A DNA stretch of 44,545 bases, taken from the IMG/VR virus record IMGVR_UViG_2737471829_000005, one strand, 5' to 3'. Position numbers and translations under genes: made by a program. The stretch is from a virus. Lineage: Duplodnaviria > Heunggongvirae > Uroviricota > Caudoviricetes. This document shows positions 28-44,545 of this stretch, piece by piece. The notes beneath the pieces are model-generated. The model did not search any database. It was not told the DNA's origin and was given only the letters and a program-made list of their open reading frames with translations. The stretch's first letter is position 1. Every line of letters begins with the position of its first letter.

Positions 28-696
28 ATGGAGTCTCGACAAATGACTATCTCTGTAGGTATTTTCAACGGAAAAGGCGGCGTAACCAAATCAACAATTG
101 CCCGTGCTTTAGCAGTTGCTTATGCAAAGGCTGGCTGGAATGTATGCCTGATCGATATGGATGTGCTTAACGGAACGGTAACGCGTTGGGTACAACGCAG
201 AATGGCCAACAATATCGAACCAGCAATCGCGGCGCAGCCGTGCGGCACACCATCACAAGTCCAGAAAATCATCGAATCAGAAATATACGACCTGGTTATC
301 GTCGATGGCGGTGCCTACGCATCTGAATCAGTACCGAAGCTCTCTGAATTTCTGGATATGGTTATTTTGCCAACCAGATTCTCTACCGATGACCTGGAAA
401 CCACCGTTAACACAGCTCACGGCATCGTTAAAAAGGGTGTACCAATCAAGAAAATTTGCATGGTGTTTTCCGGCGCGGCTGAAAACGAAGCTGACTATAT
501 TGAAGCCCAAGAGTACCTGGCTAATACGCCATACTTTGTTGTCGATAAGTACATTCCCCACAAGCCAGCTCTGAGCAAAGCTCAGGATAAGGGCTTAAGC
601 CTCATTGAGTGCTCATACGTTGCGCCACGCAAAAAGGCAGACGACGTTATTCAGGGGATTATCAACCAGCTTGAGGCTCTGACTACTGCCGCGTAA
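28..696 (+). CDS. ParA/ParF-like partition ATPase; true start may be the Met at 43
   Basis: 222-aa ORF with deviant Walker A GIFNGKGGVTKST; followed by a small RHH-like ORF; GGAG lies 9 nt before the Met at 43. Confidence 0.8.
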   Translation: MESRQMTISVGIFNGKGGVTKSTIARALAVAYAKAGWNVCLIDMDVLNGTVTRWVQRRMANNIEPAIAAQPCGTPSQVQKIIESEIYDLVIVDGGAYASESVPKLSEFLDMVILPTRFSTDDLETTVNTAHGIVKKGVPIKKICMVFSGAAENEADYIEAQEYLANTPYFVVDKYIPHKPALSKAQDKGLSLIECSYVAPRKKADDVIQGIINQLEALTTAA

Positions 697-728
697 TATA
701 TAATTATAGTTTTATAGATTTATATAAG
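696..728 (+). promoter_or_regulatory. AT-rich repeat block between the ParA-like and ParG-like genes; candidate operator or centromere-like site
   Basis: atatataattatag ... tatagatttatataag, two motif-like half sites. Confidence 0.3.
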
Positions 729-4850: not shown

Positions 4851-4880
4851 AACCGCCCGGCAAGGCGGTTTTTGTCTTTC
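4851..4880. terminator. Intrinsic terminator, likely bidirectional
   Basis: aaccgcc-cggcaa-ggcggtt with T-run on plus and A-run upstream. Confidence 0.6.
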
Positions 4881-4921: not shown

Positions 4922-5194
4922 TCATTTGATCCCTTGTTCCAATTCTGACGACACTTTAACCTTTTCCCATACAAGGGTTTGCAGCCTTAACAGAATCGCA
5001 TCTTTATCAAGGTGTGAAAGATCCTTAACCATATCGTCAAACGACAGAACGCGAATGGCCATCTCAATGACCCTCGGCGGCTCCCCCTTCTCATATCGCT
5101 TATATGTAGCCAACGATATCCCAAATTCTTCGGCGGCTCGCTCCTGCGTCCAGTTCATCCCACGACGCCATAATTTCAATTCATAACCCGTCAT
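4922..5194 (-). CDS. HTH (XRE-family) DNA-binding protein
   Basis: ATG at 5194 with AGGAGG RBS; HTH motif WTQERAAEEFGISLATYKRYEKG. Confidence 0.65.
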   Translation of the reverse strand: MTGYELKLWRRGMNWTQERAAEEFGISLATYKRYEKGEPPRVIEMAIRVLSFDDMVKDLSHLDKDAILLRLQTLVWEKVKVSSELEQGIK

Positions 5195-5222
5195 AGCATC
5201 CTCCTCGCACAATATTAACACT

Positions 5223-5249
5223 CGCAAAGTGTCAAAATGACACTTTGCG
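5223..5249. promoter_or_regulatory. Perfect 12-bp inverted repeat cgcaaagtgtca-aaa-tgacactttgcg between the 126-aa gene and the HTH gene; operator or attenuator hairpin
   Basis: Palindrome read directly; sits in a 60-bp intergenic gap. Confidence 0.5.
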
Positions 5250-5638: not shown

Positions 5639-5755
5639 CGGGTTATCTCCGGTTTAACCAGGGCGGGTATCGCTCGGTTTCGGTTATAACCTTAGGAAAT
5701 TTTTTCCCACCTGTAAAGCATTTTTTATATAAATATATAATTATATAATTCTATG
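5639..5755 (-). repeat. Conserved promoter-leader cassette, copy A
   Basis: More than 90% identical to 37715-37823 and 44444-44545; holds the AT-rich motif, a TTTACA hexamer, GGGAAAAAATTTCC, and a leader ending at GGAG and ATG. Confidence 0.8.
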
Positions 5756-5801
5756 AGCACAAAAAAGCCCCTTTGCAACAGGGGCTTATCATTCGTTCTG
5801 A

Positions 5802-31947: not shown

Positions 31948-32528
31948 CCATTAGCAAGATACTGAACAAATCCCTCATGCGTTTCATGCGCGTCGTGGTA
32001 CTGACGATAAACATCCAGCAACAATGCAATTTCCATATCCGTCGCGGGAATACGTTCTTTATCAATAGCCAGGTACTTAATTTGAACAACAGGGGAAGAA
32101 TTATCGTCTTCTTCCTGCGGCTGTTCATCGCTTAACATTTCGTCAAGCTCTGCATCATTAAACCCAAGCAGATCAATATCAAAATCATCATCCATTAACT
32201 CTTTGACTTCTTCGGCCAGAAGCTGCATATCCCAGCCAGCATTTAAGGCCAGCTTGTTATCTGCAATCCTGTAAGCCTTCTTCTGTTTTTCAGAAAGGTT
32301 ACTCAACCGAATCGCCGGAACTTTATCCATTTCAAGAATTTCGGCTGCTGCAAGCCGACCATGCCCCGCAATCAGTTCATTCTTTTCATCGATCAGCACA
32401 GGATTAGTGAAACCGAACTCACGGATACTGTTCACCAACTGTTCAACCTGCTCATCTGAATGAGTCCGTGAATTTTTGGCGTATCTGAGCAGCTTACCGA
32501 CTGGTAAATATTCGATTTTTAGAGCCAT
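31938..32528 (-). CDS. ParB/Srx-like N-terminal domain protein (paralogue of 35195-35818)
   Basis: 196 aa; GHGR motif AGHGRLAAA; full-length paralogy with the third ParB-like protein. Confidence 0.75.
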   Translation of the reverse strand: MALKIEYLPVGKLLRYAKNSRTHSDEQVEQLVNSIREFGFTNPVLIDEKNELIAGHGRLAAAEILEMDKVPAIRLSNLSEKQKKAYRIADNKLALNAGWDMQLLAEEVKELMDDDFDIDLLGFNDAELDEMLSDEQPQEEDDNSSPVVQIKYLAIDKERIPATDMEIALLLDVYRQYHDAHETHEGFVQYLANGCK

Positions 32529-33085
32529 TTTTTAACCGCCATAACACAACAGGTTAAAGAAAACTGTTTAACTTATTGATACTAAAAGAGAAAAATGACG
32601 ATCTTTTTACTCATAAAAAATCACACAAACCAGCATAATCATCTGATTTTATTAAGTTTTTATAAGTGAAAAGGATCTTGAGATGGTGTTTTGGTTAAAA
32701 GATTGGATGTATTTGCATGATTTATAACGATTTTTATCAGAACAACATCACATTGGTTAAAGATCTGCGCGTATCTTGATGATCTAAAAGAAAATTCTCT
32801 ACTTTCTTTTCACCATCACAAGCACAGCAAAAAATCACGTTTTCCCAATATTTTTCAATGAGATGGGTAAATTTCTTTTACCGCAACTTTTAACCTAACT
32901 TTTTTCACGTTTAGCTAGCCGAATATCGGGGTTCGAATGACCCGCATCCAACGCTTTTGGCCAGAAGGACCCAATTCTGCCGGACGATGAAACGATGCTC
33001 GTGCTCCCCCACAGACAGCCAGCGAGCGACGCTACAGAACACAGTGAATACACCCTGCATAACAACACCATCAACCACACGATGA
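32529..33085. other. AT-rich ORF-free intergenic region with four GATC sites upstream of the packaging genes; candidate late promoter or packaging-site region
   Basis: No credible ORF; GATC at 32600, 32674, 32762 and 32781. Confidence 0.3.
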
Positions 33086-33805
33086 TTAACGAGAGAACGT
33101 CTTAGAAAGGATGTCATCAATAGCCTTTGTGACTTCATCAGCAAACGCATCCTCACCAGCACGCAGCGCCACGCCATGCCAATCAAGACGCTGCGAATAG
33201 TTAGGTTGCTGGATGAACGTAAGGATCAACGTAGGACGCCGCCCAACGCGCTGCCAGACGCCTGGTTGAAGCGGGTTACTTGTACCAGGTCGAACAACAA
33301 AAAACTCCGTAGGCTTGCCCTGACGGCGATTTTGATGCGCATCTCGCTGAACTCTTAGGCCAGATAAGACCTGCTGTAATTGCCCCCGCGAAATATTCCC
33401 GTATTTGTCCAGCTTTGCGCCGGGACCAGGAGCAAGCTGCCAGCCGTTAGGCAAATATCCACCAGCCCTTAGCGCCCCTTCTGAGCGTTTGTACTGTCGT
33501 TGGCCACCTTCGATTTGCGGAGTCAACGTTACAGGGGCTGGCGTTCCTCCCCATTCACGAGCATACACAATGGCTGTAGGATCACTCTTCTTTGCGGCCA
33601 AAACGTAAGTAGAGTTCTGAATCCACGGCGTGGGCCTGTCAAATACCCGATTAATTTCATTCTTAATCGCAGCCTGAGAAGCCTTTGCCGTTCTGGTTGC
33701 CGCAAGCGCCATTGCGAACGGCAATTCGCGTTCTTCAAGGCGCTGGAGTTGTCGTTGAATATCCTGAGAAGAAAAATCCATCTTTATCTCAATTCTGTCA
33801 GCCAC
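33086..33805 (-). CDS. Hypothetical protein (239 aa)
   Basis: Long ORF downstream of the ParB-methyltransferase fusion. Confidence 0.55.
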   Translation of the reverse strand: MADRIEIKMDFSSQDIQRQLQRLEERELPFAMALAATRTAKASQAAIKNEINRVFDRPTPWIQNSTYVLAAKKSDPTAIVYAREWGGTPAPVTLTPQIEGGQRQYKRSEGALRAGGYLPNGWQLAPGPGAKLDKYGNISRGQLQQVLSGLRVQRDAHQNRRQGKPTEFFVVRPGTSNPLQPGVWQRVGRRPTLILTFIQQPNYSQRLDWHGVALRAGEDAFADEVTKAIDDILSKTFSR

Positions 33806-35818: not shown

Positions 35819-35963
35819 GCCGTTTATCCGCTAAAATCCCCTCGCTTGTGCAAGCAAGTGGGCCTCGGTTTGTATCCACGGCACCCTGTGGGTATGAATG
35901 ACTGTCGTCAGGTCGCAACTGACGGCGGTCGCCCACCTTCCAGTAATAAAAAAGCCACCAGCA

Positions 35964-35989
35964 TTAACTCCACAGCGAGCTGGAGTTAA
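35964..35989. promoter_or_regulatory. 9-bp inverted repeat ttaactcca-N8-tggagttaa upstream of the ParB-like/late gene block
   Basis: Perfect palindrome in the 235-bp intergenic region. Confidence 0.35.
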
Positions 35990-36052
35990 TGAGGCAGCTT
36001 TGGTTTGCGCATTATCGCAGCCCCTGGTAAGCACAAGAGCTGCTGTAATGCT

Positions 36053-36084
36053 AAAAAAACAAAACCACCCGCAGGTGGTTTTAT
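36053..36084. terminator. Bidirectional intrinsic terminator at the end of accessory operon B
   Basis: aaaaccacc-cgca-ggtggtttt. Confidence 0.6.
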
Positions 36085-36962: not shown

Positions 36963-37418
36963 TTATATCCTTCCATTCATTTTTATCGGATGACCAGATA
37001 GCCTTACGCAGTTGAGCTGTAAAGCTCCGGTATCAACTAACTGATCAACTAACATGATTAGAGCTTCATATTCAGACTGATAGCTAACCTGACGCATTCG
37101 ACCGCCGTTGTTCTCCAGAATGTCGGCCACCTTTGCAGCCAACTCGCTTAGACAGGAGAACTTATTCCCATATATCGTTTTATACTCGCGCTTCTGGCAT
37201 TCTTCGGCTTGCGGCTGGTTATCGAGAGCTATCAGCGACCGATGGCTATCAAGGAAGTCCACAATCTCATTCAGGCACTCTTTGGCTGCCTCATCGTGAC
37301 TTTTTCCGTATGCTTCATGGAGGACTTTCATCCTCATCATTGCTCCGTCACACATAATCGAAAGCGCGTAAAGCACATCACTAATCGCCATTTCTTTTTT
37401 GGTGCTTGTCGAAGGCAT
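36963..37418 (-). CDS. Hypothetical protein (151 aa)
   Basis: ATG at 37418 with AAGGAGA RBS, just after an internal terminator. Confidence 0.55.
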   Translation of the reverse strand: MPSTSTKKEMAISDVLYALSIMCDGAMMRMKVLHEAYGKSHDEAAKECLNEIVDFLDSHRSLIALDNQPQAEECQKREYKTIYGNKFSCLSELAAKVADILENNGGRMRQVSYQSEYEALIMLVDQLVDTGALQLNCVRLSGHPIKMNGRI

Positions 37419-37443
37419 CCCATGTTCTCCTTTGTCTGGATGT

Positions 37444-37469
37444 AAAAAAGCCCCGGCAATTGCCGAGGC
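37444..37469 (-). terminator. Intrinsic terminator inside operon B, between its first and second genes
   Basis: Minus-sense gcctcggc-aauu-gccggggc (8-bp stem) followed by U6. Confidence 0.6.
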
Positions 37470-37492
37470 TCGTTGTTCGTTATCGTTACGGT

Positions 37493-37714
37493 TTAATGCT
37501 CGCGTCGTCCGGCGACAACTTCGGATTTGTATTTCAGGTCGCCCAGCAAGAATTGCAGCTTAAGCATCTTTGCCGCCGTGTAGTTCCCTGATTCCACAAC
37601 CTCTTTCATGAGGTCATAAACGGCCGCTACATCATCAGCCAGGAACTCTTTGCGTTGCTGATCAGTCGCACGTTTGAAGGAAATACGCATTACTTTACGG
37701 TCTTGTTCTTTCAT
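37493..37714 (-). CDS. Hypothetical small protein (73 aa), first gene behind leader cassette B
   Basis: ATG directly at the conserved leader RBS. Confidence 0.55.
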   Translation of the reverse strand: MKEQDRKVMRISFKRATDQQRKEFLADDVAAVYDLMKEVVESGNYTAAKMLKLQFLLGDLKYKSEVVAGRREH

Positions 37715-37823
37715 CGGGTTATCTCCGGTTTAACCAGGGCGGGTATCGCTCGGTTTCGGGTATAACATTAGGAAATTTTTTCCCACCTGTAAAGTACTTT
37801 TTATATAAATATATAATTCTATG
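37715..37823 (-). repeat. Conserved promoter-leader cassette, copy B
   Basis: More than 90% identical to copies A and C. Confidence 0.8.
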
Positions 37824-38406: not shown

Positions 38407-38462
38407 GTTAGTTGTGCCTCCGGCGCTTATCTCCGGCAGTCATAACGCTGGCCAGCTCTACA

Positions 38463-38507
38463 GCAAACACAACGAAAAGGGCACTAACCAGACTGATTAA
38501 TGCCCTT
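38463..38507 (-). terminator. Intrinsic terminator about 200 nt downstream of the tRNA
   Basis: Minus-sense aagggcauuaauc-agucu-gguuagugcccuu (13-bp stem, two G-U) followed by a U-rich tract. Confidence 0.5.
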
Positions 38508-38714: not shown

Positions 38715-38790
38715 TGGTGGCCCCTACCGGATTTGAACCGATGACCGTGCGATTATGAGTCGCCTGCTCTAACCACTAAGCTAAGGGGCC
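38715..38790 (-). tRNA. tRNA with CAU anticodon (Ile2-like or Met elongator; not distinguishable by eye)
   Basis: Reverse complement is GGCCCCTTAGCTTAGTGGTTAGAGCAGGCGACTCATAATCGCACGGTCATCGGTTCAAATCCGGTAGGGGCCACCA: 7-bp acceptor stem, D-arm, CTCATAA anticodon loop, GGTTCAAATCC T-arm, encoded CCA. Confidence 0.85.
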
Positions 38791-38882: not shown

Positions 38883-38929
38883 ATGGTTGATGCGTGCGCC
38901 CATGAGAAAAGCGCATAGAATGTTGTAAC

Positions 38930-38965
38930 TATATATTTATATAATTATAGAAATATATATTACTT
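38930..38965. promoter_or_regulatory. AT-rich recurrent motif copy; candidate promoter for the tRNA unit
   Basis: ctatatatttatataattatagaaatatatattac. Confidence 0.35.
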
Positions 38966-39169
38966 TCGGCAGTTGATTTCCCATGCCCTGTTATGAGCCA
39001 GAATATCTTTCTTTGTCTGGCGGTCCATAACATCGATATCGTGATCAGTCAGGTAGATGGGCTTTACCCAATCACAGGCGGTATCAACCACCACCGGGAC
39101 GCTTCCATGACTCCCGCAGCTCGCGATCAACATCGTCATCAGCCATATGGTTAACACTCTGCTGTACAT
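38960..39169 (-). CDS. Outer-membrane spanin (Rz1-like lipoprotein)
   Basis: 69 aa; signal peptide with lipobox LIASC; overlaps the 3' end of the Rz-like gene in another frame. Confidence 0.55.
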   Translation of the reverse strand: MYSRVLTIWLMTMLIASCGSHGSVPVVVDTACDWVKPIYLTDHDIDVMDRQTKKDILAHNRAWEINCRK

Positions 39170-39901: not shown

Positions 39902-40220
39902 GATTAAATCCTAATGCGTCAACTATCCGCGCCAGATTGCCCCTGAAATACAGAACAACGATGCAGATAATCAGATTTCCAATAACCACCAGCCAGTGGG
40001 ATTCTTGATAAAGACCGAACACATAACGGAAGGGAACATTGGCGTATACAATGACGTAGATATAAGCCAGAAAGGAAACAAATGGACGATGCCTGGAGTC
40101 TTTCCGTCGATAAAGCATCAGCGCCATTACTATTACTGTGCAAAGCACCGCATTAATCAGTGCTGACGGGTCACTGCTTACCATTTGAACCCCCTCCACG
40201 TAAGCGGGAAAGCATTCCAA
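39888..40220 (-). CDS. Membrane protein of the lysis cassette (holin or antiholin candidate)
   Basis: About 100-110 aa with hydrophobic helices; between holin-like gene and endolysin. Confidence 0.5.
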   Translation of the reverse strand: MECFPAYVEGVQMVSSDPSALINAVLCTVIVMALMLYRRKDSRHRPFVSFLAYIYVIVYANVPFRYVFGLYQESHWLVVIGNLIICIVVLYFRGNLARIVDALGFNHDQR

Positions 40221-40566
40221 AGATGCTACCGAGATCCTGGCTGTTTACGAACGTGAGGATTTTAATGGTCAATGCAGCCACAATAACCGCACCAAGCGCA
40301 TCCAGAGGACGATCGTTGTAGCTGGTCCATTTGGCAAGAAATGAGCCAACTAACGGCGCTCCAATCACTCCAACAATGAACGATGTAAAGAAATAGCCAA
40401 TCAGCTTGAGACGGCTAATATTCACCGCTGTAGCAACATAGAAAACAGCGCCAGCAAATGCCCCGAATACAACGCCGTAATCAATACCAGTTGCAATACC
40501 AAAAACGCTGGCACCCATCAGGCCACCAGCAGCAACGGCCGTACCGGAAATTGGTTCTGCTGACAT
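40171..40566 (-). CDS. Holin-like membrane protein
   Basis: 131 aa; several Gly/Ala-rich transmembrane segments and charged C-terminus; first gene of the lysis cassette. Confidence 0.55.
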   Translation of the reverse strand: MSAEPISGTAVAAGGLMGASVFGIATGIDYGVVFGAFAGAVFYVATAVNISRLKLIGYFFTSFIVGVIGAPLVGSFLAKWTSYNDRPLDALGAVIVAALTIKILTFVNSQDLGSIFGMLSRLRGGGSNGKQ

Positions 40567-40580
40567 TGAAATCCTCGTTA

Positions 40581-40610
40581 AAAAAAAAGCCCCGCCGAAA
40601 AAGGCAGGGC
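40581..40610 (-). terminator. Intrinsic terminator immediately upstream of the holin RBS (lambda tR'-like placement)
   Basis: Minus-sense gcccugcc-uuuuuc-ggcggggc (one mismatch) followed by U8, then GAGGA RBS and ATG. Confidence 0.55.
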
Positions 40611-40952
40611 TTCATAAAGCAACAAATTACGCGGTAATCGCTTAACGCAGTTTTACTACGTTAAATGAAACACTACACCCAGTTACCACCTAAAACAAGG
40701 TTTTCTCATAAAAAAACCTTCAAATCGTGGTTAATCGATCAATAAAAAAACAATACTCAACTTTTTGCCAAACGAACATCCCGGCCAGGACTTCCATAAT
40801 ATTCGCCGATATGCCACTGCTTAAGTTGAGTAATCTTCTCCAACTTAACTCCCATAGAGTCCAGTTTCTGCCATGTTTTCGGTTGTATGTGCTTCATTAT
40901 CCGCTCTGAATATCTGAATACTGCTCGTAATCGCATGGCTTCTCACTACAGC

Positions 40953-43020: not shown

Positions 43021-43319
43021 GCCACAGCCCCTCTCAACGGCTTAACTTTGGCTAATAAGGTGTTAAACAACATGGAGTTAGGGTTCATGCCAAATGGCAA
43101 TTCCGGTTTAGCGGAGTAGTACAGGCAACCATTTATTTTCCTGGTTGTTATCTGTCCTTCGGCAACCATGCTTCTCAGTCTGCAACGCATAGAGTTCTGC
43201 GACACACCAATGTGCTCCGCGATTACGTCCACTTTTGAACATGGGTGATCGGTCAGGAAATTAATCACATCTTGGGGGTTAATAATTTTGCGTTTCATTG
43301 TCGAGGCGTCCTTATACAT
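43017..43319 (-). CDS. Winged-helix / HTH DNA-binding protein, first gene of an operon headed by the AT-rich motif
   Basis: 100 aa; DVIAEHIGVSQNSMRCRLRSMVAEGQI resembles MarR/GntR-like wHTH. Confidence 0.55.
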   Translation of the reverse strand: MYKDASTMKRKIINPQDVINFLTDHPCSKVDVIAEHIGVSQNSMRCRLRSMVAEGQITTRKINGCLYYSAKPELPFGMNPNSMLFNTLLAKVKPLRGAVA

Positions 43320-43345
43320 TTATATAAATATATAATTCTATATAC
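43319..43345 (-). promoter_or_regulatory. AT-rich recurrent motif copy upstream of the winged-helix operon
   Basis: tttatataaatatataattctatatac. Confidence 0.4.
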
Positions 43346-43365
43346 GGCGGGAGACATCCCGCCGT
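43344..43365. other. Perfect 9-bp stem hairpin downstream of the DUF3560-like gene; terminator candidate without a clean U-run
   Basis: acggcggga-gaca-tcccgccgt. Confidence 0.4.
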
Positions 43366-43375
43366 AGGCTTACTG

Positions 43376-44443
43376 TCAGGCTTTCAATAGCGATTCTTTC
43401 AGATATCGGGCATCAGCCAGGGCATTTGGAGTAATCTTGCGAACCCATGCATTACGGGTTGGACTCCACTTAAAGGCGCGTGATTTAAGCAGCGAACGAA
43501 TGTTTGCCTCTGGTTTGCCAGGGAAATAAAACAGGATGCGGTTATCCTCTGGATCTATCTCCATAGAAAAGTCGTCGTATTCTTCGCGCTGTGCTCCTGT
43601 TACAGACTTGACCGATTCAAGCTCCTTAATACGGCTCTGTAGTCGTTTGATCTCGGCGTTATTGTTGCTCAGTACGTATGAAGGGAATCCGATGCGCCCA
43701 CAGAAATCTCCGGCCAGTAACTCTTTGGCTTCGCTTTCTGTAAACCTGAGATCGATTAATGCAGAAAGCACCTGTAATTGGTCTTTTTTGTATTTGCGAA
43801 TGGCCTTATTTGCGGCCTTCATTTTGACGTGTGACTTCATGCAGCCTTGCAGCTTACGAAGCAACTTAAATAGCGCATCAGGATCATCAGACGAAATTCC
43901 ATTACGACCAACACCTGCGGCTTTGCTCTCGTAGTGTGATGCTTTACTTTCGCATTCAACAAACGCTTTTCTTAATAACGCATCAGCTTTAGACAAACGG
44001 CGGCGATGGCCTTTCGCGCTATAATGGTCAACTAAAATCGGCTGGCCTAACGGGATCACATCCAACAGGTCATGCGCTCGCTTATGCGCTACCGCACCTT
44101 CTTTTCTGGCTTTTTCTGCACGAGCAATATATCGGGCAAGACGCGCGTTCTGGCGTTCCTGATAGGTGTTTACGTAATCATCTCCGCGCTGCTGCTGTTC
44201 AAGCCATGCTTTGCGCAGATCTTCTGTTACGTCCACCAGCTCCGCAGGGATACAACCAGTTTGGGCTTCATAAGAGTAACCATCCTCATAGATACGCCCA
44301 TCATCTTCAACAAAGAAAAAGGTTTCGTGCTCATCGCTTTTGACCATACGACCATTAACATGGCGTAATAGGTAGCCAGTATCAGTGCTTAACAGGCTGT
44401 TAGGGTTGTTGATCCAGTCAGAAATAATTACTTGTTTATTCAT
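43376..44443 (-). CDS. DUF3560-like protein (355 aa), single gene behind leader cassette C
   Basis: LGQPILVDHYSAKGHRRRL and C-terminal FKWSPTRNAWVRK resemble conserved DUF3560 blocks as recalled. Confidence 0.55.
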   Translation of the reverse strand: MNKQVIISDWINNPNSLLSTDTGYLLRHVNGRMVKSDEHETFFFVEDDGRIYEDGYSYEAQTGCIPAELVDVTEDLRKAWLEQQQRGDDYVNTYQERQNARLARYIARAEKARKEGAVAHKRAHDLLDVIPLGQPILVDHYSAKGHRRRLSKADALLRKAFVECESKASHYESKAAGVGRNGISSDDPDALFKLLRKLQGCMKSHVKMKAANKAIRKYKKDQLQVLSALIDLRFTESEAKELLAGDFCGRIGFPSYVLSNNNAEIKRLQSRIKELESVKSVTGAQREEYDDFSMEIDPEDNRILFYFPGKPEANIRSLLKSRAFKWSPTRNAWVRKITPNALADARYLKESLLKA

Positions 44444-44545
44444 CAGATTTCTCCGGTTTAACCAGGGCGGGTATCGCTCGGTTTCGGTTATAACCTTAGG
44501 AAATTTTTTCCCACCTGTAAAGCACTTTTTATATAAATCTATAAT
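44444..44545 (-). repeat. Conserved promoter-leader cassette, copy C; its promoter end is cut by the window end
   Basis: More than 90% identical to copies A and B. Confidence 0.8.

Follow-up and report, generated by a model that had tools for sequence, protein, structure and literature searches.

In phage lambda, the Q-pR'-6S RNA-tR'-S region holds a strong intrinsic terminator that lies well upstream of the holin gene. The morons of lambdoid phages, described by Hendrix and co-workers, are promoter-gene-terminator cassettes inside late operons, and intra-operon terminators are known in E. coli, for example between rplL and rpoB. In Shiga-toxin (Stx) phages, the PR' promoter is always active and is terminated immediately downstream during lysogeny, and a small RNA, StxS, is made from PR'-tR' (PMC7547250).

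We analyzed a 44,545-nt stretch of DNA (hereafter, the window), which makes up ~44.5 kb of a ~48-kb circular myovirus-type phage-plasmid. The window is near-identical to a RefSeq-annotated plasmid, of which ~2.4 kb lie outside it. The phage-plasmid family is present in 72 of 5,426 complete E. coli genomes (~1.3%), ATCC 25922 with its 48,488-bp plasmid among them; its carriers include clinical and reference E. coli strains. Our literature searches found no study of the lysis/late-gene switch of this family. Two described groups were considered as descriptions of the family and rejected as different: the pSLy3 group (SSU5 supergroup) and the mEpimmI phages, which are integrated siphoviruses. Elements of the SSU5 supergroup are ~100 kb in size.

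As in lambda, a strong intrinsic terminator ends a short non-coding leader directly before the first lysis gene, and the lysis and virion genes lie downstream in the same direction, so that they would depend on read-through. Unlike in lambda, we detected no Q-family protein (PF06530 and relatives) and recognized neither a strong constitutive sigma-70 promoter nor a Q-binding element; the terminator touches the holin ribosome-binding site (RBS), and the prophage is a plasmid whose immunity region is of a P1-like C4/antirepressor type. As at the E. coli rplL-rpoB attenuator, a terminator between co-transcribed genes would lower distal expression, although such intra-operon attenuators are not tied to a lysogeny/lysis switch or to cassette exchange. 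StxS, a short transcript ended by a terminator before late genes (PMC7547250), offers a possible model for the leader described here, which has a U-rich stretch and a U9 tail.

Terminators adjoining ribosome-binding sites

The minus strand is the coding strand, from which nearly all transcription of the window comes, and the genes from ~44443 to 11223 are co-directional throughout. The initial annotation had reported a strong terminator at 37444-37469, before the RBS of the second gene of a leader-driven unit (unit B). The features at this site are:

37493..37714, minus strand: first gene of unit B, 73 aa
37444..37471, minus strand: terminator T2, between the 73-aa gene and the RBS of the 151-aa gene
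36963..37418, minus strand: 151-aa gene, phrog_14707, no PHROG function

We confirmed this terminator, which has a G+C stem and a U6 tract, is on the coding strand and stands far above chance. It reads GAGCCUCGGC-AAUU-GCCGGGGCUU and continues into U6 (the stem spans 37471..37448 and the U run 37449..37444), with an 8-bp G+C core that includes one G.U pair and is extendable to 10 bp. Its folding energy is -18.2 kcal/mol for the hairpin alone and -20.9 in context (z = -3.9), with 0/200 shuffles as good. The hairpin lies 21 nt 3' of the stop codon of the 73-aa gene; an AAGGAG Shine-Dalgarno sequence (37432..37427) follows 11 nt 3' of the U run, ahead of the ATG of the 151-aa gene at 37418.

T2 is placed identically in every family variant examined, always directly 5' of an MPSTSTKKEMA-type gene whichever cassette precedes it, including in the Salmonella, Klebsiella and metagenome versions. 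Stem pairs are kept via one-sided changes (C-G to U.G, G-C to G.U); there is little covariation because all family members are close relatives. The U tract is U6 in the window and U5 in the Salmonella relative, and homology between the window and plasmid pMB9272_3 starts at T2. The 24-nt hairpin, GCCTCGGCA(N)TTGCCGGGGCTTTT, also occurs in >120 IMG/VR contigs. Many of these have a lambda-S-family holin gene (PF05106) ~89 nt downstream of it, and those inspected closely have a Phage_antitermQ gene ~100 nt upstream of it. In >100 Pseudomonas-type (lambdoid) prophage contigs the identical hairpin occupies the Q-to-holin interval. The tR'-position terminator of these prophages and the window thus have the 24-nt hairpin in common, whereas the window copy precedes the 151-aa gene rather than the holin and the flanks are not shared.

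The second site lies at the head of the lysis cassette:

40757..40936, minus strand: 59-aa gene, phrog_9594, no PHROG function, directly upstream of the leader
40613..40745, minus strand: conserved non-coding leader, upstream of the holin terminator
40580..40612, minus strand: holin-proximal terminator, a hairpin plus U9, 3 nt before the holin Shine-Dalgarno GAGGA
40171..40566, minus strand: holin gene (Phage_holin_8; annotated in RefSeq on the near-identical plasmid) that opens the lysis cassette, ATG at 40566

A terminator with a U8 tract had been noted here at 40581-40610, abutting the holin RBS. We found a strong terminator at that distance from GAGGA, but its tract is U9: it reads AAGCCCUGCC-UUUUUC-GGCGGGGCUU (40612..40587) then U9 (40588..40580), with an 11-bp stem and a folding energy of -18.7 to -24.3 kcal/mol (-24.3 in context, z = -4.2). 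The leader before it contains a 5' block that is conserved, TTATTGATCGATTAACCAC (40745..40727), the hairpin SL1 (40720..40697), which varies, and a 57-nt core (40700..40644) that includes the hairpin UUAACGUAG-UAAAA-CUGCGUUAA; a U-rich stretch precedes the terminator and the U9 tail follows it. The core is near-invariant in 12 variants with divergent flanks. Salmonella-type relatives keep the core and have, in the same place, a terminator of another sequence and another holin. The 59-aa gene is replaced by a different gene in some family members.

A consensus scan of 40567-40760 gave no promoter for the holin leader, and by eye we saw just weak candidates, none a convincing sigma-70 promoter. 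The window holds no second copy of the 5' block TTATTGATCGATTAACCAC that would mark a repeated late promoter, and a DNA-pattern scan of the species-representative genome collection for the leader core found nothing. A possible open reading frame in the leader, MRKPCFRW (40709..40683), was rejected as a leader peptide: it overlaps SL1, its variation is equally explained by upkeep of the hairpin, and it is startless in one complete plasmid.

As a chance control, we scanned for a hairpin plus U tract at <= -14 kcal/mol and compared the window with eight first-order Markov random sequences. The scan gave seven candidates on the minus strand and two on the plus strand, against ~0.9 per strand in random sequence; the best random hairpin reached -17.0 kcal/mol, and five real minus-strand candidates lie at or below -17.7. 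Co-directional terminators absent from the initial annotation were found at 36084..36059, 35998..35954, 38507..38477 and 5787..5765, the last of which insulates a promoter described below. The other three are:

38477..38507, minus strand: 14-bp hairpin with a weak U tract, between a tRNA gene and an MT-A70 methyltransferase gene
36059..36084, minus strand: intrinsic terminator after a DUF2513-like gene, AUAAAACCACCUGCGGGUGGUUUUGU plus a U run
35954..35998, minus strand: the window's strongest hairpin (-23.5 kcal/mol) plus U6, in a 240-nt non-coding stretch upstream of a ParB_N gene (35818)

The recurring layout proposed earlier holds at two sites, where real coding-strand terminators adjoin the next RBS in a position kept across diverged relatives.

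A repeated promoter and an exchangeable cassette

Unit B starts from one of three copies of a promoter/leader, which are 96-98% identical to one another:

5646..5741, minus strand: promoter/leader copy A, insulated by the intrinsic terminator 5787..5765 immediately upstream
37722..37817, minus strand: promoter/leader copy B, with -35 TTTACA (37793..37788), a 17-nt spacer, -10 TAATGT (37770..37765) and a 5' UTR of ~45 nt
44450..44545, minus strand: promoter/leader copy C, heading a DUF3560 gene (44443..43376) and genes running towards the holin leader

Among the relatives compared, A2 and T6 of the -10 are kept and the inner bases vary. The three units begin with unrelated genes, which encode 126 aa, 73 aa and a 355-aa DUF3560 protein. 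In the 73-aa gene, a deletion has joined, in frame, the first 8 codons of an 89-aa gene to a 65-aa gene (phrog_6621, no PHROG function). This 65-aa core is preceded by other genes in relatives; the 65-aa gene always precedes a terminator, of which there are three sequence forms.

The interval from the promoter to T2 holds at least five gene arrangements among otherwise collinear relatives. Variants 5' of T2 include the 73-aa fusion, genes of 89 and 66 aa, and genes of 86 and 65 aa with a second terminator and a 240-nt insert; in relatives, another cassette terminator adjoins another RBS. The insert is highly conserved and non-coding and lies between two terminators, the second being T2, in four relatives (L003, L006, L154 and L156). 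We rejected it as a structured RNA: its fold is no better than shuffles (z = -0.9, -1.9), four sequences offer two compensatory pairs, and the window lacks it.

Protein comparisons said little about function. The 73-aa product had no Pfam, NCBIfam, PHROG-function or PDB match, and the 151-aa gene had no wider relatives in the species-representative genome collection. For the small proteins, sequence searches of Pfam, NCBIfam, PHROGs and PDB were uninformative, and a homology search returned only 10 near-identical hypothetical proteins.

Unit B, labelled an operon in the initial annotation, is better described as a swappable promoter-small gene(s)-terminator cassette inside a long co-directional gene array. 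Like a moron, it has its own promoter (TTTACA-17-TAATGT) upstream, its own terminator (T2) downstream and variable content among collinear relatives. Its gene content is swapped while flanks and terminator remain constant, and it is co-directional with, and lies between, the lysis and packaging genes. Unlike in lambdoid morons, one promoter/leader is used three times per genome, and the genes after T2 lack a promoter.

The palindrome before the HTH gene

The unit headed by copy A contains a further inverted repeat:

5223..5249, minus strand: perfect 12-bp palindrome (3-nt loop), flanked by the 126-aa and HTH_3 genes
4922..5197, minus strand: HTH_3 gene, 91 aa, weak RstR-like match, downstream of the palindrome

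This palindrome had been thought to hold the same position before the HTH gene as T2 does in unit B. A perfect 12-bp palindrome is present there, with a folding energy of -18 to -22 kcal/mol, but it cannot be classed as a terminator alongside T2: the transcribed-strand tail, AGUGUUAAUAUUGUG, has no U tract, and it is therefore not a canonical intrinsic terminator. More probably it serves as an operator for the neighboring HTH gene or forms a stem-loop in the mRNA.

We put at a little below even the chance that the palindrome is the operator of the HTH_3 protein, overlapping the promoter of that gene and mediating autoregulation rather than termination. Apart from the missing U tract, several observations point this way. 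The adjacent gene product is a Cro/C1-type HTH protein; the core, AAAGTGTCA-N3-4-TGAYACTTT, is kept in a Salmonella-type relative in which the outer G+C part and the flanks have changed; and in both the window and that relative the palindrome core is followed, 12 nt further on, by a -10-like hexamer (TAATAT or TAAAAT). However, two relatives (L034 and L026) carry a 560-nt insertion between the palindrome and the HTH gene, with the palindrome staying by the 126-aa gene, an arrangement more easily explained by a stem-loop at the 3' end of the mRNA or by a bidirectional stop. A conserved C to U change also keeps RNA pairing (G.U), so that it is equally compatible with a role in DNA or in RNA. A palindrome half-site near promoter B (37822) was rejected, as one extra 8-mer is the chance expectation and it is not kept in relatives.

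Proposed regulated read-through and its alternatives

We hypothesized that T2 and the holin hairpin are functional Rho-independent terminators that gate the downstream genes, with antitermination during lytic growth permitting read-through, and we consider this somewhat more probable than otherwise. Both would end transcripts in vivo, which is indirectly favored by their constant placement in diverged relatives and by the T2 hairpin in the Q-to-holin interval of other phages, and read-through would be regulated rather than merely leaky; lambda-like gating via read-through is plausible, for lysis above all. No promoter fits between T2 or the holin terminator and the next gene, so the downstream genes would be transcribed only via read-through. 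In the model, each terminator would close a short promoter-proximal unit directly against the RBS of the next gene. One unit would comprise promoter copy B, one or two small genes and T2; the other would comprise the conserved non-coding leader, ~130-190 nt, and the terminator with U9. In the plasmid-prophage state, expression would be confined to these short units, with the holin and post-T2 genes silent or weakly expressed. In lytic growth, antitermination would carry transcription through T2, the holin terminator and the terminators at 38507..38477, 36084..36059 and 35998..35954. The logic would be that of lambda pR'-tR'-S and of terminator-bounded cassettes (morons) within late operons. 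A 560-nt A+T-rich gap (32528-33086) may hold a separate promoter for the structural genes, and a single long antiterminated late transcript is thus not required.

The analogy with lambda pR'-tR'-S drawn in the initial annotation stands at the holin site, where the terminator ends a conserved leader before the first lysis gene and a short leader plus terminator lies just upstream of the lysis/late genes, as in a lambda-type Q module. It falls short in that no Q/N-type family was detected. Pfam gave no Phage_antitermQ or related family among 30 window proteins; no antiterminator family appeared in 10 proteins rescanned with NCBIfam or in 10 scanned with PHROGs; no N-like protein family matched among the proteins scanned; and the RefSeq annotation of the ~2.4 kb of plasmid outside the window lists no Q-type antiterminator gene.

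The small first genes had been put forward as candidates for the missing factor, a proposal that our results do not favor. It is very improbable that the small first gene of each leader-driven unit is an antitermination or attenuation factor for the terminator behind it. All that speaks for it is that the 73-aa gene is small and suitably placed, and that its 65-aa core always lies ahead of a terminator. Against this, the three first genes are unrelated, that of unit B in the window is a deletion fusion, and its product lacks an arginine-rich motif, a family match or a solved-structure match. No small first gene of this sort accompanies the holin terminator, and the 59-aa gene upstream of that terminator is replaced in some members. 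Inspection by eye of the 45-nt leader of the repeated promoter revealed neither boxA/boxB nor anything resembling a nut or put element, and shuffled sequences fold comparably well (z = -1.7). Attenuation at T2 by a leader peptide found no footing in the window either, with no short open reading frame, no competing fold and just 21 nt between the first stop codon and the hairpin; an 8-codon frame, MFDEFDGF, that lies 5' of T2 in some relatives was rejected, being disrupted in L154 and absent from the window.

As termination at intrinsic sites is seldom complete, passive leakage might be enough to express the genes after T2. A constitutive attenuation, in which leaky terminators fix the ratio of high promoter-proximal to low downstream expression with no dedicated factor, is a possible though rather unlikely explanation of the layout. 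It agrees with the lack of an antiterminator homologue among the proteins scanned, and a tract of only U6 at T2, shortened to U5 in the Salmonella relative, would suit incomplete termination; with the stop codon 21 nt ahead of the hairpin, translation would be uncoupled from the forming terminator. It is a poor fit for the holin, whose timing is normally tightly controlled, and for an 11-bp stem with U9, and serial terminators (40612, 38507, 37471, 36084 and 35998) would multiply to very low read-through on one transcript. The terminators may instead be mainly the 3' ends of small regulatory RNAs, with downstream gating as a by-product; this is compatible with the gating model, and we regard it as unlikely. 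On this reading, the holin leader (~40740..40580) would be an Hfq-type trans-acting RNA like StxS and T2 would end the 240-nt element in relatives. The near-invariant 57-nt core between diverged flanks, the U-rich stretch with its U9 tail, the conserved insert between two terminators and the StxS precedent (PMC7547250) are all consistent with such RNAs. So is a match of the leader to the GcvB RNA (Rfam RF00022), which is statistically notable (E = 2e-5 for 5.4 kb) at 36.2 bits, below the gathering score of 42, and places a G/U-rich segment of the leader against the single-stranded G/U-rich segment of the GcvB model. We rejected the leader as GcvB itself on account of this sub-threshold score, the lack of a gathering-level match across the whole window, the lack of a match in the Salmonella version and the lack of BLAST similarity to chromosomal gcvB; the last two also weigh against a small RNA, as do the negative promoter search for the leader and an insert that folds like shuffles and is absent from the window. 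RNA duplex scans of the window for targets of the leader core yielded no duplex that could be interpreted, all being long and imperfect, and our literature searches found no paper on a phage- or plasmid-borne GcvB-like RNA.

Within the gating model, one improbable version is that antitermination unrelated to Q, N or put times the lysis/late genes via the 57-nt core as its cis-acting element, and that in the plasmid-prophage state the terminated leader doubles as an Hfq-type trans-acting small RNA targeting host mRNAs with a GcvB-like G/U-rich seed. The layout itself, with a terminator before the late genes and terminator-bounded cassettes, is textbook lambda biology, and what we describe is mainly a known principle in a new group. 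Should these terminators control expression of the holin and accessory genes, the lysis/late-gene switch of the family would be defined by the conserved leader together with the read-through factor; both would also account for exchangeable accessory cassettes lying within a late transcription unit without obstructing its transcription.

Terminators in a phage-plasmid gene array

Nearly all long ORFs in the window lie on the minus strand, so every element of the finding is read on that strand. The genes fall into three groups. Those of a plasmid are ParA, a RepA-type initiator, a resolvase and a HigB/HigA-like pair; immunity is represented by a P1-like region, in which isrK and C4 antisense RNAs occur together with an ORF6N/Rha antirepressor; and the phage part is a complete myovirus head, tail and lysis set. 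Near-identical DNA is carried by 72 of 5,426 complete E. coli genomes, in which 212 of the 215 matching places lie on plasmids of ~47-52 kb. The matches include the 48,488-bp plasmid of ATCC 25922, and further ones are three Yersinia-plated phages, vB_YpM_39, 41 and 44. Based on this gene content and the mainly plasmid matches, the element is a phage-plasmid, with the window forming most of its circle.

The initial annotation had called three intra-operon terminators, each directly before a downstream RBS. Two of these have the hairpin and U tract of an intrinsic terminator; the third, a palindrome, fails this class test. The claimed U6 at 37444-37469 was correct, and the claimed U8 at 40581-40610 is a U9.

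Terminator sites and palindrome (extra sites are from the hairpin-plus-U-tract scan)
37444-37469, minus: T2, GAGCCUCGGC-AAUU-GCCGGGGCUU, then U6; -20.9 kcal/mol in context, z = -3.9, 0/200 shuffles as good
40581-40610, minus: holin terminator, AAGCCCUGCC-UUUUUC-GGCGGGGCUU, then U9; -24.3 kcal/mol in context, z = -4.2
5223-5249, read on minus: perfect 12-bp palindrome; the transcribed strand goes on as AGUGUUAAUAUUGUG, with no U tract
36084..36059, minus: extra co-directional terminator
35998..35954, minus: extra co-directional terminator, the strongest of these (-23.5 kcal/mol, U6)
38507..38477, minus: extra co-directional terminator
5787..5765, minus: extra co-directional terminator, just upstream of promoter copy A
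4870..4851, minus: extra co-directional terminator, end of unit A

The placement before the RBS held at both confirmed sites. At T2, 21 nt separate the stop codon of the 73-aa gene from the hairpin, and the U run is followed by 11 nt, an AAGGAG Shine-Dalgarno and the ATG of the 151-aa gene at 37418. The U9 of the holin site is followed by AAC, GAGGA and the ATG of the Phage_holin_8 gene at 40566; since only 3 nt separate this U run from the Shine-Dalgarno, the holin can be transcribed only through the terminator. Scanning the window for hairpins with a U tract at or below -14 kcal/mol returned seven candidates on the minus strand and two on the plus strand; random sequences that kept the dinucleotide statistics gave ~0.9 per strand. 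With the additional co-directional terminators, which the original list had not included, the sites lie more densely than first described.

The T2 cassette and its hairpin in other phages

The stretch from promoter B (the repeated promoter copy at 37722-37817) to T2 differs among relatives.

Versions of the promoter B to T2 stretch
This window: one 73-aa gene
Most E. coli plasmids and Yersinia phages: 89-aa gene and 66-aa gene
pMB9272_3: 86-aa and 65-aa genes, a second terminator (T1) and a 240-nt non-coding insert
Salmonella Weltevreden plasmid 3, a Klebsiella aerogenes contig and a metagenome contig: further pMB9272_3-like versions

The 73-aa gene (37493-37714) is an in-frame deletion product in which codons 1-8 of the 89-aa gene are fused to the 65-aa gene; these two genes are separate in most relatives. 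A terminator stands behind the 65-aa gene in all versions, in three sequence forms. The Klebsiella version has T2-like hairpins at both terminator positions, and a deletion between such copies would therefore explain the arrangement in the window. Compared with pMB9272_3, homology begins at T2. In every version compared, T2 lies directly before the RBS of the MPSTSTKKEMA-type (151-aa) gene, and the few substitutions in its stem each affect one arm only and leave the base pair intact (C-G to U.G; G-C to G.U). T2 behaves as a fixed cassette boundary, matching the logic of a terminator-bounded cassette in a phage transcription unit. In several relatives a further cassette terminator (AGCCUCGCGGUGUCGCGGGGCU and a U run) adjoins the RBS of a different gene; together with T2 in every version, it shows that a terminator set against the next RBS is a consistent property of this accessory region.

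The 240-nt insert between two terminators is not present in the window. It shows almost no variation over about 100 nt, with strongly diverged neighbouring genes. Rfam gave no match to the insert, and its fold is no more stable than that of shuffles. An 8-codon ORF within it, MFDEFDGF, occurs in three lineages with three different stop codons and is disrupted in a fourth.

Loci with the 240-nt insert or example T2 hairpins (relatives or other viral contigs)
L003 3040-3320, minus: insert
L006 775-1050, minus: insert
L154 2735-3012, plus: insert
L156 1262-1532, plus: insert
L051 6380-6403: T2 hairpin
L096 7657-7680: T2 hairpin

The 24-nt pattern GCCTCGGCA(N)TTGCCGGGGCTTTT recurs in >120 IMG/VR contigs among the matches listed (L039-L153), most of them unrelated to the element, with ~58% G+C and Pseudomonas phages as nearest known relatives. 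Among these listed matches, many contigs, Pseudomonas-type lambdoid prophages, have a lambda-S-family holin gene (PF05106) ~89 nt downstream of the hairpin; a second terminator often precedes the hairpin, which in other contigs directly adjoins an RBS. In the contigs examined in detail, a Phage_antitermQ gene (PF06530) lies ~100 nt upstream of it, and in Enterobacter/phi80-like prophages the hairpin sits between the spanin genes and rha. These contexts show that the exact T2 hairpin is used where a Q-modified polymerase must pass a terminator, which does not in itself prove its function here. Because the hairpin alone is common to the window and the other phages, with different flanks, its copies would represent either a mobile terminator or a convergent one.

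The holin leader and the palindrome

The 59-aa gene and the holin gene are separated by 190 non-coding nt. We compared this leader across twelve variants, two of them Salmonella-type with neighbouring genes only ~70% identical. A 57-nt core, CCTTGTTTTAGGTGGTAACTGGGTGTAGTGTTTCATTTAACGTAGTAAAACTGCGTT (40700..40644), varies at only four positions. Upstream of it are a conserved block, TTATTGATCGATTAACCAC, and a variable hairpin (SL1, 40720..40697), in whose 3' arm purine transitions keep the pairing with the opposite U run. Downstream of the core, both the terminator (AAGCCUCGCUU...AAGCGGGGCUU plus U7-9) and the holin of the Salmonella-type relatives differ from those of the window; in some E. 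coli plasmids another gene replaces the 59-aa gene, and homology begins at the 5' edge of the block. A near-invariant core with exchanged terminator, holin and upstream gene shows that leader and terminator form a conserved module before the lysis genes, in which the terminator is conserved in position, not in sequence. The window holds no second copy of the 5' block, and neither a promoter scan nor reading of the aligned variants gave a convincing sigma-70 promoter for the leader. A possible 8-codon ORF, MRKPCFRW (40709..40683, minus), overlaps SL1, with a Shine-Dalgarno-like GAAGG 7 nt upstream; relatives show synonymous changes (AAA/AAG, GGA/GGG, AGG/AGA), and one complete plasmid is missing the start codon.

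For 40738..40581, the Rfam match to GcvB scored 36.2 bits, below the gathering score of 42 (E = 2e-5 in the 5.4 kb that was searched); in it, GGUGUAGUGUUUCA aligns with the single-stranded G/U-rich segment of the model. No RefSeq copy of the plasmid has an annotation on this stretch (40581-40738, minus). Given the score, the lack of a match in the Salmonella version of the leader and the lack of BLAST similarity to chromosomal gcvB, we rejected GcvB membership and kept the match as a lead. StxS is a small RNA at PR'-tR' of Stx phages (PMC7547250). By analogy, the terminated holin leader might itself be a small regulatory RNA, which is compatible with the terminator reading.

Other RNA features were observed in the window. 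A 240-nt non-coding stretch (35819-36058, minus), between terminator 36084..36059 and the ParB_N gene, holds hairpin 35998..35954, the strongest in the window with a U6, and may be a further small RNA. A full-length ryfA-family RNA (1211-1509, minus; 134.6 bits) on the plasmid may be a type I toxin-antitoxin maintenance module. The isrK and C4 antisense RNAs (2543-2616 and 2641-2729, plus), upstream of the ORF6N/Rha antirepressor gene, form an arrangement resembling the P1/P7 immI immunity region. A tRNA gene with anticodon CAT (38715-38790, minus; Met per ARAGORN, its homologue Ile in RefSeq) lies between the lysis genes and an MT-A70 methyltransferase gene; immediately before the latter there is a weak rydB-like match (38409-38464, minus), which is also seen in two relatives.

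The palindrome core, AAAGTGTCA-N3-4-TGAYACTTT, is kept in a Salmonella-type relative with altered outer G+C pairs and flanks, and a U tract follows it in neither version. Both have a -10-like hexamer (TAATAT or TAAAAT) 12 nt after the core, and the gene behind is a Cro/C1-type HTH gene. This conserved arrangement fits an autoregulatory operator of the HTH gene. However, in two relatives (L026, L034) a 560-nt insertion parts the palindrome from that gene and leaves it with the upstream gene, which would fit an mRNA 3' stem-loop. On either reading, the palindrome differs in kind from the two confirmed terminators. In one relative of this comparison its loop is inverted (TTTT to AAAA), with unchanged arms.

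Repeated promoters and read-through

Units A, B and C, three unrelated gene sets, are each headed by a 96-112-nt repeat (5646-5741, 37722-37817 and 44450-44545; all minus), 96-98% identical within the window. Its layout is TTTACA, 17 nt, TA(A/T)NNT and a ~45-nt 5'UTR. Relatives from E. coli, Salmonella, Klebsiella and metagenomes differ at the inner positions of the second hexamer and share a constant A2 and T6, which supports the identity of this hexamer as the real -10. The fold of the leader RNA is no stronger than in shuffles (z = -1.7), and no boxA/boxB-like motif was seen in it by eye. Within any one Salmonella or Klebsiella genome, all promoter copies are of one variant (e.g. AACCAGAAACCGAGCGATAGTCGCC), suggesting concerted evolution or co-variation with a trans-acting factor. 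A+T-rich TTATATAA-type repeats, which may be sites for a repressor, activator or partition protein, occur in several intergenic regions of the window (696-725, 38921-38966, 43312-43349) and directly upstream of all three promoters.

On the best-supported reading, the two confirmed hairpins work as terminators and close short promoter-proximal units in a long co-directional array, with the genes behind them dependent on read-through. Both would then terminate transcription in vivo, and read-through would presumably be switched on in lytic growth. The holin terminator follows the same logic as lambda pR'-tR'-S, and the lambda-like conditional read-through proposed initially stands in its layout of two terminators with genes behind them. 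It falls short in the protein component, where the window departs from the Q and N systems: no Q, N or other known antiterminator family is among the proteins scanned. The small first genes, put forward as the factor, are poor candidates; they are unrelated between units, and that of unit B is, in this window, a deletion fusion without an informative homologue. Passive leakage through the terminators is the main rival to switched read-through.

Literature searches found no study on regulation of this phage-plasmid family, and we give a new antitermination factor or phage-plasmid small RNA a minority chance. The closest known systems are lambda Q/pR'/tR', StxS, lambdoid morons and intra-operon attenuators; the layout is already known in kind, and occurs here in a phage-plasmid family.
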